From: a virus
Lineage: Duplodnaviria > Heunggongvirae > Uroviricota > Caudoviricetes
Direction: 5' to 3' (one strand)
Length of the DNA stretch: 13,233 nucleotides
Virus record (IMG/VR): IMGVR_UViG_2695420747_000007
Coordinates: 1 to 13,233 of that record
Shown: positions 1-7,498 of the stretch, in pieces
How the letters are laid out: each line of letters opens with the position of its first letter
Numbering within the stretch: the stretch's first letter is position 1
Position numbers and translations under genes: made by a program
Notes under the pieces: model-generated
The model's input: only the letters and a program-made list of their open reading frames with translations
The model's database searches: none
Told to the model about the DNA's origin: nothing

Positions 1-115
1 CCCGCCACCAGCACACCGTCAGCCAGCACTGACATTATCCGGCTGCTGCAATGCCATTCACAAAAACAGTAAGCAATCACTTTTTACCGTAACAGGTGAT
101 AATCCAGATATGTAT

Positions 116-469
116 CTACCCCAGATGAGTAATCCGAAGTTCATCCATACCACAGGTCCTGGCTATTCTGTTGTACTCCTGAACAAGAGCAAATAATTCT
201 GAATTAGCCACCATGAACTCATCGCAAACCCTCTGTATAGCATCACTATTCAGAATAATAACGTCTCTTCCCGAAAGACGATCAGGAGTACAGAACAAAA
301 CTGTCAAACGGCTGAAGGCCTTTGCTCGTTCTGCATTGACTATATCAATACGCTGCCTAAGGATGAAACACCCCGACGCCTCATCAATATTCACTCTACC
401 CACACCATATGAATGATAAATATTTAATGCTGAAAAAACCATTAGACGGTATAACAAACACTCAATCAA
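116..469 (-). CDS. Hypothetical AT-rich cargo protein (117 aa, copy 1), downstream of the phage tRNAs in the late-transcript direction
   Basis: Open frame in the six-frame track; co-oriented with Q/pR'. Track start at 469 is TTG; first in-frame ATG is at 442; no convincing SD at either. Stop TAG at 116-118. No family recognised. Confidence 0.35.
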   Translation of the reverse strand: MIECLLYRLMVFSALNIYHSYGVGRVNIDEASGCFILRQRIDIVNAERAKAFSRLTVLFCTPDRLSGRDVIILNSDAIQRVCDEFMVANSELFALVQEYNRIARTCGMDELRITHLG

Positions 470-579
470 TACTTAACAGAACTTTTATTTTTGACAAACA
501 TATAATATTTTCAACAAGATCCTGAGCCAGGTATATTTCAGTATAAGGCTCTGCCGGAAGGAATCTGGAAGAATGAATA

Positions 580-656
580 TGGCGCGCTGTACTGGATTCG
601 AACCAGTGACCGATTGCTTAGAAGGCAATTGCTCTGTCCGGCTGAGCTAACAACGC
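580..656 (-). tRNA. tRNA-Arg (anticodon UCU), copy 1
   Basis: Reverse complement folds as a cloverleaf: acceptor GCGTTGT/ACAGCGC, D-stem GCTC/GAGC, anticodon stem ATTGC/GCAAT with loop CTTCTAA, T-stem ACTGG/CCAGT with loop TTCGAAT, encoded CCA. Resembles the argU/argO class from memory. Confidence 0.9.
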
Positions 657-690
657 TGAATACCGATAATGGACCGCCATCGGGGACCCG

Positions 691-706
691 CCCCCCCCCC
701 CCCCCC
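691..706. repeat. C16 homopolymer between the two tRNA genes (C5 in the second copy at about 2350-2354)
   Basis: Read directly: 16 consecutive C here versus 5 at the equivalent position of copy 2. Confidence 0.9.
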
Positions 707-767
707 GCACCAACAACCCTGTTATCGTGTCGTCTGCTCTTCCTGATAAGCTCATGGCGGTTTGTGA

Positions 768-843
768 TGGTGGCCCTTGCTGGATTTGAACCAGCGACCT
801 GGCGATTATGAGTCGCTCGCTCTCACCACTGAGCTAAAGGACC
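768..843 (-). tRNA. tRNA-Ile2 (anticodon CAU, ileX/ileZ-like), copy 1
   Basis: Reverse complement GGTCCTTTAGCTCAGTGGTGAGAGCGAGCGACTCATAATCGCCAGGTCGCTGGTTCAAATCCAGCAAGGGCCACCA: anticodon loop CTCATAA, T-loop TTCAAAT, encoded CCA. Near-identical to my recollection of E. coli ileX; CAU could formally also be Met. Confidence 0.85.
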
Positions 844-882
844 GGGAGCAGAATAATAACGGTCCGTAATTAATTCCGCAAT

Positions 883-904
883 AAAAAACCCGCTCGGTGG
901 CGGG
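883..904 (-). terminator. tR'-like intrinsic terminator, copy 1
   Basis: On the minus strand a GC hairpin (CCCGC-loop-GCGGG, plus 889-904) is followed by a T6 run (plus 883-888), placed after the pR'-like promoter. Confidence 0.65.
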
Positions 905-953
905 TTGTAGAAACTCTTCTAACGTCAGGTATAAAAAGCCCATCGTTATGACG

Positions 954-981
954 AATTTACCACAGATTCCGGAAAAATCAA
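954..981 (-). promoter_or_regulatory. Late promoter pR' with qut/pause region, copy 1
   Basis: Minus strand TTGATT-16-TAAATT followed by CGTCATAACGATGGGC. The TAAATT...AACGATGGG arrangement matches the lambda pR'/pause element as I recall it. Confidence 0.6.
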
Positions 982-986
982 CCTTG

Positions 987-1756
987 TTACCTAGTTACCT
1001 TTTTTAACTGCCGCTCAGCCCATGCTTCTTCAATATCAAACCGGGTCACCAGCGCATCATAGAATTTCTTAACTGTTTTTTCCCATGACGCGCGTGTTAT
1101 CTGGTTTGTCACCTCGCATATAGCATTAAATGCCTCCGTTGATGGTAGTCTTTCATAGCCACGACCACCACAACGCTGGCAGTCTCTGATAACAGGCATA
1201 CCACGTTTTACCGACTCTTCACGGTGAATGGCGACACCACGCCCACGGCAATCCTTACAGACGGTGGAAACCTCACCCTTTCCGCCACACTCCGGACAGG
1301 CAACTTTTACCACCTCCCTGACTTTTTTCCATTCTTCCCAGTAAGACGGATACACACCTTTCGTACACTTTGCCCATACCGGCGGCTTACCATCCGGATA
1401 CTGGACCTTGTTTGTAAAAACTACGCTTTCAATAAATTTTTCCCCATAGCAACAAGGGCACTGCTTTTTACTCGCTGCGCTGCGGGCATAATCCTCAAAA
1501 GCGTACGAAGCCATAATGCGCATCACTACCGGTTTTATTTCTGCCGGAAGTTTTCTCAACGCCGCCACACGATCGCACCGACTGAGTGCATAATCTGCCA
1601 GTAATTCTGTTGCCCGCGCCCTGTCATTCATACTGATGCCCATCTTCCCCAGGAACGCAGAAAACCCCATCTCAGCCCGATTCTGTGTCATGCCCTGCGC
1701 GGCCATCACATCAGTGATACTCAGCGCATCTTTTGACGTTGAGGCCGATGCATCGG
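987..1756 (-). CDS. Q-like late antiterminator, copy 1, 5'-truncated by the N gap
   Basis: Paralogous to the 273-aa ORF at 4175-4996. Multiple CxxC zinc-ribbon motifs (CPCC, CPEC, CKDC, CQRC); sits directly upstream of pR'. The frame runs open from 1709 up to the N run at 1757. Confidence 0.7.
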
Positions 1757-1763: not shown

Positions 1764-1784
1764 GGTGATAATCCAGATATGTAT

Positions 1785-2141
1785 CTACCCCAGATGAGTA
1801 ATCCGAAGTTCATCCATACCACAGGTCCTGGCTATTCTGTTGTACTCCTGAACAAGAGCAAATAATTCTGAATTAGCCACCATGAACTCATCGCAAACCC
1901 TCTGTATAGCATCACTATTCAGAATAATAACGTCTCTTCCCGAAAGACGATCAGGAGTACAGAACAAAACTGTCAAACGGCTGAAGGCCTTTGCTCGTTC
2001 TGCATTGACTATATCAATACGCTGCCTAAGGATGAAACACCCCGACGCCTCATCAATATTCACTCTACCCACACCATATGAATGATAAATATTTAATGCT
2101 GAAAAAACCATTAGACCGTATAACAAACACTCAATCAACAC
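1785..2141 (-). CDS. Hypothetical AT-rich cargo protein (copy 2 of the 117-aa ORF)
   Basis: Near-identical to 116-469 (one R/G difference near the N-terminus). Track start at 2141 is GTG. Confidence 0.35.
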   Translation of the reverse strand: MLIECLLYGLMVFSALNIYHSYGVGRVNIDEASGCFILRQRIDIVNAERAKAFSRLTVLFCTPDRLSGRDVIILNSDAIQRVCDEFMVANSELFALVQEYNRIARTCGMDELRITHLG

Positions 2142-2248
2142 TTAACAGAACTTTTATTTTTGACAAACATATAATATTTTCAACAATATCCTGAGCCAGG
2201 TATATTTCAGTATAAGGCTCTGCCGAAAGGAATCTGGAAGAATGAATA

Positions 2249-2325
2249 TGGCGCGCTGTACTGGATTCGAACCAGTGACCGATTGCTTAGAAGGCAATTG
2301 CTCTGTCCGGCTGAGCTAACAACGC
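2249..2325 (-). tRNA. tRNA-Arg (anticodon UCU), copy 2
   Basis: Identical sequence to the tRNA at 580-656. Confidence 0.9.
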
Positions 2326-2425
2326 TGAATACCGATAATGGACCGCCATCGGGGACCCGCCCCCGCACCAACAACCCTGTTATCGTGTCGTCTGCTCTTC
2401 CTGATAAGCTAATGGCGGTTTGTGA

Positions 2426-2501
2426 TGATGGCCCTTGCTGGATTTGAACCAGCGACCTGGCGATTATGAGTCGCTCGCTCTCACCACTGAGCTAAAGGGC
2501 C
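2426..2501 (-). tRNA. tRNA-Ile2 (anticodon CAU), copy 2, variant 3' end
   Basis: Same cloverleaf as 768-843 but the 3' terminus is encoded as TCA instead of CCA (plus tga at 2426-2428) and acceptor position 3 is C instead of T, turning a G-U pair into G-C. Confidence 0.8.
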
Positions 2502-2550
2502 GGAAGCAGAATAATAATGGTGCGTAATTAATTCTGCAATCTCATCCGTT

Positions 2551-3600
2551 TCAAACGATTAAATCCTGAACTTCCCTGACTGTCTGCTCAAAACGTCCGG
2601 TCTCCAGTTCAACGCCAATCGCACGACGCCCGAGCGCCAGTGCAGCTTTTACCGTTGAACCTGAGCCCATAAAAAAATCTGCAACCAGGTCACCCGGACG
2701 ACTGCTTGCGCTGATTATCTGCTGCAGCATTTCTGCCGGTTTTTCGCACGGATGTTTCCCGGGATAGAACTGCACCGGTTTATGTGTCCACACATCCGTG
2801 TACGGCACCTGCGCCGTCACACCAAAATACCGCCGCAGATGCTTATATTCACTCTGCAGCTCCACATACTGCCGGTTCAGTGACGTATACGTATCCACCA
2901 GCTGGTGGTGGGGCTTTTCCAGTTCACCGCGCTGATGTTTCTCTTCTGCCACCCGGGCAAACAGCGACTGTAATTTCAGATAATCGCTTTCGTTCGGTAG
3001 CTGCCACTGACTGGCACTGAACCAGTGCGACACCATGTTTTTCTTTCCTGTGGCATCTGCAATCTGTTTTGCCGTTATCCCCAGGGCCACGCGCGCATCA
3101 CGAAAGTAAGAAATCAGCGGGGCCATCACATGCTGTTTCAGTGCACTGCCCTTCGCCGCATACCCGGCATCTTTCGGACGATACGGCCCCTGATAATGTT
3201 CCGCGAACAGAATGCGCTCTGTGGCGGGGAAATACGCCCGCAGGCTTTCCTTGTTGCATCCGTTCCAGCGTCCGGACGGCTTCGCCCAGATAATATGGTT
3301 CAGCACACTGAAGCGTTCACGCATCATGATTTCGATATCAGATGCCAGGCGATGACCACAGAACAGGTAAAGACTTCCGACAGGTTTCAGCACCCGCCAG
3401 AACTGCGCCAGACACTGGTCCAGCCACTTCAGGTAATCATCGTCGCCCTTCCACTGGTTATCCCAGCCCTCAGGCTTCACTTTAAAGTACGGCGGGTCCG
3501 TGACTATCAAGTCAACAGAATTTTCGGGTAACGACCGGATAAATTCCAGGCAGTCGACGTTGATTAACTCACAACTGGATATTTTTACAGTGTTAAGCAT
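2551..3600 (-). CDS. Orphan DNA methyltransferase, beta-class (N6-adenine or N4-cytosine), 349 aa
   Basis: N-terminal motif IV DPPY (IVTDPPYF) precedes C-terminal motif I FxGxG (DFFMGSGST), the beta-class permutation. ATG at 3600 with weak SD. No adjacent endonuclease gene. Confidence 0.85.
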   Translation of the reverse strand: MLNTVKISSCELINVDCLEFIRSLPENSVDLIVTDPPYFKVKPEGWDNQWKGDDDYLKWLDQCLAQFWRVLKPVGSLYLFCGHRLASDIEIMMRERFSVLNHIIWAKPSGRWNGCNKESLRAYFPATERILFAEHYQGPYRPKDAGYAAKGSALKQHVMAPLISYFRDARVALGITAKQIADATGKKNMVSHWFSASQWQLPNESDYLKLQSLFARVAEEKHQRGELEKPHHQLVDTYTSLNRQYVELQSEYKHLRRYFGVTAQVPYTDVWTHKPVQFYPGKHPCEKPAEMLQQIISASSRPGDLVADFFMGSGSTVKAALALGRRAIGVELETGRFEQTVREVQDLIV

Positions 3601-3692
3601 GGATCATTAAGCCTGTCTCTGATAGGCTCATTCTGCTTTTGCGCAAAGCAGTGGGCCTGAGGTTTGCTTGTGAACCCAACGCATGAGCAGAT

Positions 3693-3723
3693 GGCTGGTG
3701 GGTGCCCCTAACACCCACCAGCC
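3693..3723. promoter_or_regulatory. Perfect 12-bp inverted repeat (GGCTGGTGGGTG-N7-CACCCACCAGCC) in the methyltransferase 5' region
   Basis: Read directly; arms are exact reverse complements and no T-tract follows on either strand, so it is not an intrinsic terminator. A second near-palindrome CTGCTTTTGCGCAAAGCAG lies at about 3632-3650. Confidence 0.4.
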
Positions 3724-3740
3724 GCCCATTTACCACAAAT

Positions 3741-3763
3741 AAAAAAGCCTTCACTGCGGAAGG
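3741..3763 (-). terminator. Intrinsic terminator after the small wHTH ORF
   Basis: Minus-strand hairpin GCCTTC-loop-GAAGGC (plus 3747-3763) followed by T6 (plus 3741-3746); overlaps the stop codon of the upstream ORF. Confidence 0.5.
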
Positions 3764-3948
3764 CGTCTGTAACAACCGAACTGATAGTCTGCCAGACCCG
3801 CCATAACCAGCTGGGTCAGTATTAACTGGCAGCGTTCGCGTGAAAGGTAAGTATTCTGCGCTATCTCCCCGACTGTCGCCGGTTCGGTAACGCTTAATTC
3901 ATTAAACACCACTCTGGCGGTTTCTGTCATATCCTGCTGTTTTAGCAT
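3751..3948 (-). CDS. Small putative winged-helix protein (65 aa)
   Basis: ATG at 3948 with SD-like AAGGGA 7 nt upstream; the track's longer ORF extends this upstream. Sequence MLKQQDMTETARVVFNELSVTEPATVGEIAQNTYLSRERCQLILTQLVMAGLADYQ looks like a small wHTH/FeoC-like fold. Inference only. Confidence 0.5.
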   Translation of the reverse strand: MLKQQDMTETARVVFNELSVTEPATVGEIAQNTYLSRERCQLILTQLVMAGLADYQFGCYRRLPQ

Positions 3949-4070
3949 GTCTTTTTCCCTTTTCCGGTTAACGTGACACACCAATAACTCTTGTCGAAAA
4001 AGCCAGCAAGCTGAAAGACAGGTATTCACCGCCACCAGCGCGTTTACTGTACTGACGCGATTTCAGTCAT

Positions 4071-4092
4071 AAAAAACCCGCCAGGTGGCGGG
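4071..4092 (-). terminator. tR'-like intrinsic terminator, copy 2
   Basis: Minus-strand hairpin CCCGCC-ACCT-GGCGGG (plus 4077-4092) followed by T6 (plus 4071-4076). Confidence 0.7.
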
Positions 4093-4141
4093 GTGTAAAA
4101 AATCTTCTAACGTCAGGCATAAAACGCCCATCGTTAGAGCA

Positions 4142-4169
4142 AATTTACCACAGATTCGGGAAAAATCAA
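4142..4169 (-). promoter_or_regulatory. Late promoter pR' with qut/pause region, copy 2
   Basis: Minus strand TTGATT (plus 4164-4169), 16-nt spacer, TAAATT (plus 4142-4147), then TGCTCTAACGATGGGCG; lies just downstream of the Q stop codon. Confidence 0.65.
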
Positions 4170-4174
4170 CAACA

Positions 4175-4996
4175 CTATCGCGTTACCCTCTTTAACTGCC
4201 GCTCCGCCCATGCCTCTTCAATGTCAAACCGAACCACCAACGTATCGTAAAAGCGTTTCACTGATTTTTTCCACGTATCAAGCGTGATAGCACTCGTCAC
4301 TTTGCATATGGCATTAAATGCCTCCGTTGATGGCAGCCTTTCACAGCCACGACCACCACAACGCTGGCAATCTCTGATAACAGGCATACCACGTTTTACC
4401 GACTCTTCACGATGAATGGCGACACCACGCCCACGGCAATCCTTACAGGCGGTGGAAACCTCACCCTTTCCGCCACACTCCGGACAGGCAACTTTTACCA
4501 CCTCCCTGACTTTTTTCCATTCTTCCCAGTAAGACGGATACACGCCTTTTGTGCACTTTGCCCACACTGGTGGCTTACCATCCGGATACTGGATCTTGTT
4601 TGTAAAAACCTCGCTTTCAATAAATTTTTTTCCGTGACAGCAGGGGCACTGTTTTTTGCTCGCCGCGCTACGGGCATAATCTTCAAACGCATACGAAGCC
4701 ATAATGCGCATCACTACCGGTTTTATTTCTGCCGGAAGTTTTCTCAACGCCGCCACACGATCGCACCGACTGAGTGCATAATCTGCCAGTAATTCTGTTG
4801 CCCGCGCCCTGTCATTCATACTGATGCCCATCTTCCCCAGGAACGCAGAAAACCCCATCTCAGCCCGATTCTGTGTCATGCCCTGCGCGGCCATCACATC
4901 AGTGATACTCAGCGCATCTTTTGACGTTGAGGCCGATGCATCGGTCAGGCCAGGGGATTTTGGGGAGTAGTATTTCGGTAAATCTTCCAGTTTCAT
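4175..4996 (-). CDS. Q-like late antiterminator (273 aa), zinc-ribbon type
   Basis: ATG at 4996 overlaps the rusA stop (ATGA). Four CxxC pairs. Position immediately upstream of the lambda-like pR'. Resembles the QuuQ/YdfT class from memory. Confidence 0.8.
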   Translation of the reverse strand: MKLEDLPKYYSPKSPGLTDASASTSKDALSITDVMAAQGMTQNRAEMGFSAFLGKMGISMNDRARATELLADYALSRCDRVAALRKLPAEIKPVVMRIMASYAFEDYARSAASKKQCPCCHGKKFIESEVFTNKIQYPDGKPPVWAKCTKGVYPSYWEEWKKVREVVKVACPECGGKGEVSTACKDCRGRGVAIHREESVKRGMPVIRDCQRCGGRGCERLPSTEAFNAICKVTSAITLDTWKKSVKRFYDTLVVRFDIEEAWAERQLKRVTR

Positions 4997-5367
4997 TTTT
5001 TGACCTGCTCTTCATGCATTATGGGGTAAATCTTCACCCCCATACGTCCACCAGATACTGGCTGACCACGAACGATATTGATTTCATCAAACTGCTCATC
5101 GTCCATTAACACTCCCGCATGCGTCAGCGCATCCAGCGGTGCTTTCAGGATATTGTCCAGGTCGCGACGACGCTTATCCGGTGGCTCTGCAATCACCTTT
5201 ATCGCCAGCCTTCCGGACAGGCTTAATTTCAGCCGCTGCTGGCGAACAATAAGCGCCACAGCACGGCGATAACGCTTTCCCTCCTCCGAGATAAAATATG
5301 TGCTGCCACGGCGTCGCCAGTAAGTGTTCACCGTCGGCGGGTAAGGTAAAACCAAATCTATGAGCAT
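4993..5367 (-). CDS. rusA: Holliday-junction resolvase RusA
   Basis: 124 aa; conserved RusA-like segment PPDKRRRDLDNILKAPLDALTHAGVLMDDEQ; ATG at 5367 with SD AGAGGTGA. Confidence 0.9.
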   Translation of the reverse strand: MLIDLVLPYPPTVNTYWRRRGSTYFISEEGKRYRRAVALIVRQQRLKLSLSGRLAIKVIAEPPDKRRRDLDNILKAPLDALTHAGVLMDDEQFDEINIVRGQPVSGGRMGVKIYPIMHEEQVKK

Positions 5368-7167: not shown

Positions 7168-7323
7168 TTACTCCTCAGGTTCGTAGACTGTGAAGACAGC
7201 GACCTCCATCTGGCCGGTTCGGATTCGTACCTCGCAGAGGTCTTTCCTCGTTACCAGTGCCGTCACTATGACGGTTAAACAGATGACGATCAGGGCGATT
7301 AACATCGCCTTTTGCTGCTTCAT
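7168..7323 (-). CDS. hok: Hok-family type I toxin (51 aa)
   Basis: MKQQKAMLIALIVICLTVIVTALVTRKDLCEVRIRTGQMEVAVFTVYEPEE, near-identical to HokD/RelF as recalled. SD AAGGAG 9 nt upstream. An in-frame upstream ATG at 7380 gives a 70-codon mok-like frame. Confidence 0.9.
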   Translation of the reverse strand: MKQQKAMLIALIVICLTVIVTALVTRKDLCEVRIRTGQMEVAVFTVYEPEE

Positions 7324-7336
7324 AGCCTGCTTCTCC

Positions 7337-7365
7337 TTGCCTTTCGGCACGTAAGAGGCTAACCT
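7337..7365 (+). promoter_or_regulatory. sok: sok antisense promoter
   Basis: Plus strand TTGCCT-17-TAACCT, colinear with the plasmid R1 sok promoter (TTGCGC-17-TATCCT) as I recall it; lies inside the mok-like leader, antisense to hok. Confidence 0.5.
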
Positions 7366-7371
7366 AGATTT

Positions 7372-7445
7372 GCCGTTCATAGATTGAGCCTCAGATTAAT
7401 GTTAAGCGTCTTGCAGGACGCGTAATGTTAACTGGGGCTTTTCTC
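7372..7445 (+). ncRNA. sok: Sok-like antisense RNA (approximate extent)
   Basis: Inferred from the promoter above and the usual Sok length of about 65 nt; the 3' end is not defined by a clean terminator. Confidence 0.35.
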
Positions 7446-7498
7446 TATCTGCCTTTGGTGTTCATGCCTGAGGCAGATAGCCTCAAGCACCCGCAGTC

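Follow-up and report, generated by a model that had tools for sequence, protein, structure and literature searches.

Which function is carried in the interval between the tR' terminator and the tRNA genes of a lambdoid prophage, and when in the phage life cycle would it be expressed? These questions are raised by the virus record IMGVR_UViG_2695420747_000007 (Caudoviricetes), the first 13,233 nucleotides (nt) of which were analysed and are referred to below as the window. It covers late-regulatory DNA of a lambdoid prophage and contains this interval in two versions, termed copy 1 and copy 2, one of them empty and the other filled with about 1.5 kb of DNA. The additional segment of copy 2 (2539-4068; this and the other genes and signals discussed lie on the minus strand) is a real and already known optional cassette of lambda-like Escherichia coli prophages, encoding a small winged-helix protein and an orphan adenine methyltransferase. 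The reading preferred here, with a probability of roughly 80%, is that it represents an optional mosaic cassette in the late cargo slot of the prophage, the M.EcoGI/GII-type enzyme of which is silent in the lysogen, is induced via the antiterminator Q, and serves anti-restriction. Between the two open reading frames (ORFs) a putative structured leader RNA is found, which appears to be the single new item of this analysis.

The methyltransferase and its characterized relatives

The larger gene of the cassette (2551-3600) encodes a beta-class N6-adenine DNA methyltransferase of 349 amino acids, which is placed in the M.EcoGI/GII family by its PF01555 domain and by its identity to M.EcoGII. The PF01555 (N6_N4_Mtase) match covers residues 29-340 with an E-value of 2.1e-44, and the motifs follow the order by which the beta class is defined (PMC5778455), with DPPY (motif IV) at residues 35-38 preceding a central target recognition domain (TRD) and FFMGSGS (the FxGxG of motif I) at residues 309-315. 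The PADLOC model for Type II methyltransferases was matched as well (E 3e-166). The beta-class call of the preliminary description was thus borne out, and the search that it had proposed for the closest characterized specificity led to M.EcoGII, a non-specific adenine methyltransferase, with which 328 of 349 residues are identical in an alignment with two single-residue gaps (349 of its 350 columns being residue-to-residue), an identity of at least 94%, which is a lower bound given that the reference is a machine-read copy printed in the supplement of PMC11551740 and that several of the differences are plain reading errors. M.EcoGII, also of 349 residues, has 333 of them in common with M.EcoGI from the same strain, E. 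coli O104:H4 C227-11, and both enzymes are prophage-borne and completely non-specific for adenine (PMC5778455). At the DNA level, the cassette is 99.4% identical to strain 55989, and window positions 2400-4200 are 94.5% identical to phage 1720a-02, which according to Murray et al. (PMC5778455) bears a methyltransferase very similar to M.EcoGI/GII. The enzyme of the window, assigned by sequence, is therefore another allele of a family with which it shares its length, its beta-class architecture (DPPY, TRD, FxGxG), PF01555, and its prophage location, and context-free adenine methylation would be its expected activity. A structure of M.EcoGII was not found in the PDB, where the best sequence matches were generic beta-class enzymes.

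The genes of M.EcoGI and M.EcoGII are unexpressed in the lysogen and their overexpression slows growth (PMC5778455; reviewed in PMC12707154), and the same papers presume that the role of the enzymes is to overcome host restriction after induction. Homologues from O111 Shiga toxin-producing E. coli, with approximately 93% similarity, are predicted to lack sequence specificity, and matching methylation went undetected in the lysogens (PMC6602927).

The methyltransferase is a true orphan, since the adjacent cognate endonuclease that would define a Type II restriction-modification (R-M) system is absent. The preliminary description had seen no endonuclease partner and had pointed out that a nearby endonuclease outside the window would alter that conclusion; none was found in the window, nor within about 10 kb to the left or right of an identical module in a complete genome.

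Boundaries of the cassette and the scaffold joint

A global alignment of window positions 1-1756 with 1764-5100 places the segment specific to copy 2 at 2539-4068 (1530 bp), between a collinear block on the tRNA side (95-880 corresponding to 1764-2538, 96-99% identity) and another on the Q side (881-1756 corresponding to 4069-4944, 82-95% identity inside Q). The breakpoint alignment called for by the preliminary description, which had put the segment at 2540-4070, hence shifts its ends only slightly, with an ambiguity of 2 nt arising from an "AT" shared by the junctions. The flanks quoted there, GTAATTAATTC(C/T)GCAAT at one end of the segment and AAAAAACCCGC at its other end, were read correctly; in both copies they correspond to the T-run of tR' and to the 37 nt before tRNA-Ile2. 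The empty site of copy 1 (843-906) consists of the tR' hairpin (906-887), its T-run (886-881), 37 nt, and tRNA-Ile2 (843-768), so that the distance from the end of the T-run at 881 to the tRNA start at 843, estimated earlier at about 40 bp, is 37 nt. No direct repeats, target-site duplications, or recombinase footprints were found at the junctions, which show the 2-nt overlap only.

The preliminary description had also stated that the cargo occurs in one copy only. The presence and absence of the segment are confirmed, but the picture of two tandem copies does not hold. A run of seven N (1757-1763) joins two contigs bearing alleles of one prophage region, and window positions 1-94 are collinear with the sequence that lies immediately to the left of the start of copy 2 in a complete genome; therefore, the window consists of two contigs joined by a scaffolder. 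The copies are probably alleles of two related mosaic prophages placed next to each other, with no demonstrated duplication. It is rather probable that no insertion took place in this genome at all, the alleles of two prophages or strains having been juxtaposed; the empty form could have arisen from the filled one by deletion. In favor of this are the N-run together with the match of 1-94 to the sequence expected before 1764, the differing identities of the Q-side and tRNA-side flanks, which form a mosaic pattern unlike that of a recent duplication, and the fact that filled and empty arrangements are both common among complete genomes. The junctions, bare of any footprint, favor neither insertion nor deletion, and the juxtaposition of alleles leaves the interpretation of the segment as cargo intact, removing only the polarity of the change and the idea of a duplication. 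For readers of this record, the apparent two copies should be taken as a warning of a scaffold joint.

Position of the cassette in the late transcript

The gene for Q (4175-4996; 273 amino acids; PF03589 Antiterm, E 2e-49; phrog_127) lies upstream of the cassette and outside the indel, and is annotated by RefSeq as "antitermination protein" at an identical locus. Just past its stop codon, a putative late promoter resembling pR' may be recognized at 4141-4168, with a -35 element TTGATT (4168-4163) separated by 16 nt from an extended -10 element TGgTAAATT that ends at 4141, after which AACGATGGG follows. The site closely resembles lambda pR' (TAAATTTGACTCAACGATGGG) with its promoter-proximal pause element. 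Approximately 45 nt beyond the pR'-like site, the intrinsic terminator tR' (4070-4092) was found by a terminator scan as CCCGCCACCTGGCGGG followed by TTTTTT, its homologue in copy 1 being located at 906-881, and the first base of the cassette comes directly after its T-run. The location in the late transcript that had been proposed for the cassette is thus supported, directly behind a lambda-like pR'/tR' unit following Q, and Q-dependence would be expected from that position.

The same scan revealed a second terminator hairpin (3737-3764, stem GCCTTC/GAAGGC), which spans the stop codon of the small ORF and reads GCCTTCCGCAGTGAAGGC and then TTTTTTATTT, with the hairpin at 3764-3747 preceding a T-run; the small ORF therefore has a terminator of its own, as had been noticed earlier. 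Its stem is kept through compensatory changes, being GCCTCC/GGAGGC in Klebsiella and Buttiauxella. A simple scan for sigma-70 consensus promoters, which weak promoters could escape, found none in 2200-4300 on either strand, and no terminator was found 3' of the methyltransferase gene by the terminator scan. Of the features that characterize a moron, the cassette has a terminator of its own, after the small ORF, and is present in some related phages only, while a promoter of its own was not found by the sigma-70 scan. With its gene positioned behind two terminators, the methyltransferase of the window would be silent in the lysogen.

Two further observations concern this region. The pR'-tR' units of both copies (4070-4168 and 881-975) would yield a constitutive RNA of approximately 60 nt in lysogens, in a position which is presumably analogous to those of the lambda 6S RNA and of the StxS small RNA of Stx2a phages. 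In addition, a block upstream of the small ORF (3965-4015) is kept across genera, reading CTTGCTGGC..AGAGTTAT..GT.TGTCA, and recurs in three of the homologous loci that were compared (L002, L006, and L009; such loci are denoted below by L numbers). No convincing promoter is contained in this block, which may represent an operator or an RNA element.

A putative structured leader RNA upstream of the methyltransferase

Directly 5' of the methyltransferase AUG, a putative structured leader RNA of approximately 135 nt extends over 3601-3738 (the corresponding covariance model matches 3598-3738 with 124.9 bits). The AUG, 150 nt past the second terminator, is not preceded by a Shine-Dalgarno sequence. 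The 150-nt spacer that separates the small ORF from the methyltransferase gene is constant in length in four genera, and its nucleotide identity amounts to 78-87%, versus 67-79% for the coding flanks, where third codon positions are at about 50%. The leader accompanies the methyltransferase with or without the winged-helix ORF, and in the loci examined an intrinsic terminator or a terminator-like hairpin is found just 5' of it. Its range includes Enterobacterales, Vibrio, and Acinetobacter (L002-L056, L091-L107, L124, L065, L115, L062, and L069).

The predicted fold is a three-way junction in which helix P0 (UGGGC/GCCCA) encloses P1 and P2, together with a further hairpin, P3, and with invariant nucleotides in the junction and loops. 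Support for the helices was assessed by RNAalifold and by pair counts on a MAFFT alignment of 46 species variants, in which 92.8% of the cells in the four helices are paired, versus 32-46% when the partners are slid, and 12 pairs show double changes, versus 3.2 in shuffled alignments, the structure having been derived from the same sequences on which it was tested. At one pair of P2, for example, CG occurs in 21 sequences, AU in 10, UA in 9, and UG in 4. Divergent leaders from viral contigs (L091, L100-L106) have the same predicted architecture with wholly different helices, e.g. CUACAGUAUG/CAUACUGUAG in P1. A covariance model built from 59 sequences gave exactly one match per matching locus and none on the window outside the cassette; matches that had not been among its seeds, with 23-56 bits, were obtained in loci of Vibrio, Acinetobacter, and other gammaproteobacteria. 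In these loci, the leader is followed by a Com-like zinc-ribbon ORF and then by the methyltransferase. When this set is aligned by fitting to the model, double changes are seen at 25 of 28 pairs, and 93.5% of cells are paired, a count which is biased towards the model; in a MAFFT alignment of the set, 89.8% of cells pair and 12 pairs show double changes.

The leader sequences are also compatible with an alternative pairing, in which the 3' strand of P2 and the adjoining loop (GGUCA..AAGCG) pair with CGCUU..UGAUC, the latter ending 1 nt before the AUG. In this arrangement 85% of cells pair, versus 19-40% when the strands are slid, and minimum free energy folds of single sequences favor it (z-scores -4.0 and -3.4). 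This suggests that the leader may adopt two mutually exclusive folds that would hide or expose the start codon. Another possible element, an extended helix P3x (GGCCCAC/GUGAGCC) that competes with P0, pairs in most sequences and has a constant C.A mismatch and little covariation.

A search of Rfam 15 with E-values up to 1 returned no minus-strand match at 3598-3738, nor any in the divergent leaders L091 and L100, and literature searches, including searches by sequence strings, found no description of the leader. Several candidates were set aside. The weak Rfam matches "P26", on the opposite strand, and "Trp_leader", on the tR' region of copy 1, are both below threshold and resemble terminator hairpins. 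An upstream ORF of seven amino acids within P1 (MGGWWVL) is attributed to chance, as it lacks a ribosome-binding site and varies in length, the frame continuing past this point in the window and in L013. The anti-small-RNAs AgvB and AsxR differ in position, being located 3' of the moron coding sequence (PMC4104026). It is possible, and we put it forward tentatively, that the leader represents an undescribed class of cis-regulatory RNA gating the translation of a toxic, promiscuous methyltransferase, in the manner of a riboswitch or of a switch dependent on a protein or a ligand.

A second, unrelated leader was observed to be conserved upstream of another branch of these methyltransferases (L108-L114, L117, L123, and L168), approximately 170 nt upstream of the methyltransferase start (locus position 2501). 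Its sequence is GAUGCCUUGAGUACCUGAGACCCAG..CUGGAGAGGAAGCA, with a terminator-like hairpin inside it (GCCGCCAG..CUGGCGGC) and UUCAAGGCUC as its closing element; a good Shine-Dalgarno sequence comes next, and a LexA-box-like sequence, CTGTATAAAAATACAG, is located 5' of the leader in the majority of these loci. The two loci of this branch that were scanned against Rfam (L108 and L117) gave no match.

The winged-helix protein

The smaller ORF of the cassette (3751-3948) encodes a protein of 65 amino acids matching phrog_331 (E 1e-37) and, weakly, the TrmB family of Pfam. In RefSeq it is named as hypothetical or as "TrmB family transcriptional regulator", and elsewhere as a DprA-like winged helix. 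An AlphaFold (AF2) model, calculated from a shallow alignment, has a predicted local distance difference test (pLDDT) value of 90.4 and shows three helices followed by a beta hairpin (H-H-H-beta-beta), and a Foldseek search with it returned generic winged-helix domains of IclR, MarR, and O-methyltransferase (dimerization) proteins, with best TM-scores of about 0.8 and E-values of 2e-3 or weaker. The winged-helix character suspected in the preliminary description is consistent with both the model and these matches. The assignment of a specific function from the fold search was dropped, the matches being of the generic winged-helix kind only.

Among the 334 homologues of the small protein, all matches that were listed and named belong to Enterobacterales. 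To assess its association with the enzyme, 42 loci from different species genomes (L011-L054) were compared, each with a full-length methyltransferase homologue at least 70% identical to that of the window; the small ORF is located approximately 150 nt upstream of the methyltransferase in 26 of them and missing in 16. The winged-helix ORF is thus an optional accessory. As a weaker addition to the leader proposal, its product could be a trans-acting partner of the leader or a reader of DNA carrying N6-methyladenine (m6A).

Distribution and comparison with known systems

Of 5426 complete E. coli genomes, 2004 carry the cassette arrangement, presence being defined as coverage of at least 80% of a 1.8-kb probe, and the empty arrangement is contiguous in approximately 815 complete E. 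coli genomes. Among deposited phages, 21 carry the cassette and more than 250 others, mostly Stx2a phages, match the probe in part only. In Escherichia, Klebsiella, Salmonella, and Buttiauxella, the methyltransferase unit, which in most loci includes the winged-helix ORF, is found behind Q genes of four families (PF03589, the family of the window, PF06323, DUF1133/PF06530, and PF06530), and in Klebsiella and Salmonella it is located directly 5' of the lysis genes. Being found behind four Q families and before lysis genes, it therefore behaves as a late-operon module that recombines independently of the type of Q. A decayed copy was observed in a Klebsiella-type locus (L003:4195-4900), the small protein of which is the same as one named from K. 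aerogenes; the winged-helix ORF and the leader are kept, and the methyltransferase ends after DPPYFKVKPNG, followed by an unrelated tRNA-like stretch.

A transcriptional regulator and a DNA methylase, located between q and the tRNAs and present in some Stx2a phages only, have been reported (PMC8456039), a methylase is drawn between Q and the tRNAs in Fig. 5 of PMC3491183, and the slot downstream of pR' has been described as a moron insertion site (PMC4104026). With the block of regulator and methylase already on record, the cargo finding as such is already known. In the literature on M.EcoGI and M.EcoGII, no description was found of the location behind tR', of the second terminator, of the winged-helix partner, or of the leader RNA.

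The location of the cassette is that of the slot which holds stx in 933W-type phages (PMC4104026, PMC6266700), between Q/pR'/tR' and the lysis genes and beside the ileZ/arg tRNAs, and in both cases expression would be expected only after antitermination by Q. Classical morons differ in that they have a promoter of their own and are often expressed in the lysogen, whereas no promoter was found in the cassette by scan and its payload is lysogen-silent according to the literature. A further parallel is offered by the com-mom operon of phage Mu, likewise a toxic DNA-modification function of a temperate phage that is silent in the lysogen and expressed late; however, the window has no Com zinc-ribbon gene that either immediately precedes the modification gene or overlaps it, Mom itself is no methyltransferase, and the covariance model of the leader finds no match in Mu com-mom. 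A Com-like zinc-ribbon ORF was observed in front of distant homologues of the methyltransferase in Vibrio, Shewanella, Acinetobacter, and others (L058, L059, L062, L065, L069, L115, and L124), loci which share the operon logic of Mu com-mom. Among these ORFs, those of L069 and L059 passed the cutoff of PF10122, three more matched it weakly, and L115 gave no Pfam match; the ORF of L062 was identified from its sequence, outside the Pfam scan.

The order of genes in the cassette is also reminiscent of the C proteins of Type II R-M systems, since a small protein with a DNA-binding fold is encoded just upstream of the modification gene. C proteins are classical helix-turn-helix proteins that time the expression of the endonuclease. 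In the window, by contrast, there is no endonuclease, the fold is that of a winged helix, and the ORF is missing from 16 of the 42 close methyltransferase loci.

A model of expression and its alternatives

Given the observed anatomy, enzyme family, orphan state, terminators, and distribution, the following model may be proposed. In the lysogen, transcripts from pR' would stop at tR', any transcript begun within the cassette would run into the second hairpin, behind the small ORF, and a further block would be presented by the structured leader, which lacks a Shine-Dalgarno sequence, so that the harmful enzyme stays off. Upon induction, RNA polymerase modified by Q would pass both terminators, and the methyltransferase would then be produced alongside the lysis and morphogenesis proteins. 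The replicating phage DNA could thereby become heavily methylated before packaging, which would shield the progeny from many restriction systems in the next host.

Several points weigh against this model. The pR'-like site fits the promoter consensus at 8 of 12 positions and hence was not listed by the simple promoter scan, its assignment following from its likeness to lambda pR'. The T-run after the small-ORF hairpin is poor in Klebsiella and Salmonella, where the hairpin may terminate inefficiently. The Q-dependence of methyltransferase expression is deduced from position, and the non-specific activity of the allele in the window from its likeness to a family whose reference sequence, as used here, holds obvious reading errors. 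Finally, anti-restriction in vivo is a presumption of the authors who described M.EcoGI and M.EcoGII, for which no demonstration was found in the literature.

The preliminary description had offered an anti-restriction or an epigenetic role for the enzyme, and only the former is supported by the literature on M.EcoGII. An epigenetic regulator of the host chromosome in the lysogen, comparable to Dam or M.EcoGIII, might be suspected in any orphan enzyme on a prophage, the more so as other methyltransferases of Stx phages, such as M.EcoGIII, alter host expression (PMC6602927); yet no lysogen methylation was detectable for M.EcoGI/GII or the O111 homologues (PMC5778455, PMC6602927), expressed context-free adenine methylation is deleterious (PMC5778455, PMC12707154), and the gene is located behind two terminators with no internal promoter found by the simple scan, which together make this role very unlikely. 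Only slightly less improbable is that the relevant substrate is RNA, i.e. that late in infection the enzyme deposits m6A on transcripts of the phage or its host. M.EcoGII does methylate adenosine of RNA (rA) in DNA:RNA hybrids and in in vitro transcripts (PMC5778455) and has been engineered as an RNA methyltransferase (PMC11551740), but DNA is an excellent substrate, anti-restriction is an obvious selective benefit, and no in vivo evidence for an RNA substrate was found in the literature. The "Type II methyltransferase" label of PADLOC and of REBASE-style classification might, in turn, suggest the modification half of an R-M system with its endonuclease elsewhere. This is hardly credible, considering that neither the window nor the approximately 10 kb to each side of the module in the complete genome contain an endonuclease, that the leader and the methyltransferase, with the winged-helix ORF in most loci, travel across many genera with no third conserved gene, and that no site-specific endonuclease can be the cognate partner of a methyltransferase acting independently of sequence. 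The late-expressed anti-restriction cassette thus remains the preferred interpretation of the filled interval.

Neighboring genes and other features of the window

On the minus strand, copy 2 is organized in the order DUF968/HNH-like gene, RusA, Q, a short intergenic region, the 65-residue ORF, the methyltransferase, tRNA-Ile2, and tRNA-Arg; in a complete E. coli genome that is 100% identical over 2400-4200, the downstream neighbors are DUF3927, IraM, a SASA esterase, holin, lysozyme, and terminase. The tRNA-Ile2 gene of copy 2 (2429-2501; anticodon CAU, ileZ-type; named tRNA-Ile in RefSeq), located 49 nt 3' of the methyltransferase stop codon, and the tRNA-Arg (UCU) gene (2249-2325) were both identified by ARAGORN and Rfam, while tRNA-Ile2 of copy 1 (anticodon CAT) is labeled as Met by ARAGORN. 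In copy 1, the spacer between tRNA-Arg and tRNA-Ile2 contains a homopolymer of 16 C (691-706), versus five C in copy 2 (2355-2359). Complete genomes that match copy 1 deviate from its length by a few bases, and the tract could be either hypervariable or a sequencing-prone site. Elsewhere in the window, a type I toxin-antitoxin locus of the hok/sok type is present at 7168-7492; its Rfam sok match (7318-7492, 111.7 bits) overlaps the start of a Hok-like ORF of 70 amino acids (7168-7380), and hokD is the RefSeq annotation at the corresponding position of a related genome.

Implications

The cargo finding in itself adds little, as M.EcoGII is sold as a reagent, REBASE already lists its family, and the block is known to be variable in Stx phages. 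The silence of these enzymes in the lysogen, which the literature states with no mechanism, would gain a concrete explanation in the combination of tR', the second terminator, and a structured leader devoid of a Shine-Dalgarno sequence. If the leader is a true regulatory RNA, it would show how temperate phages hold a genome-wide methylating enzyme off and then switch it on.

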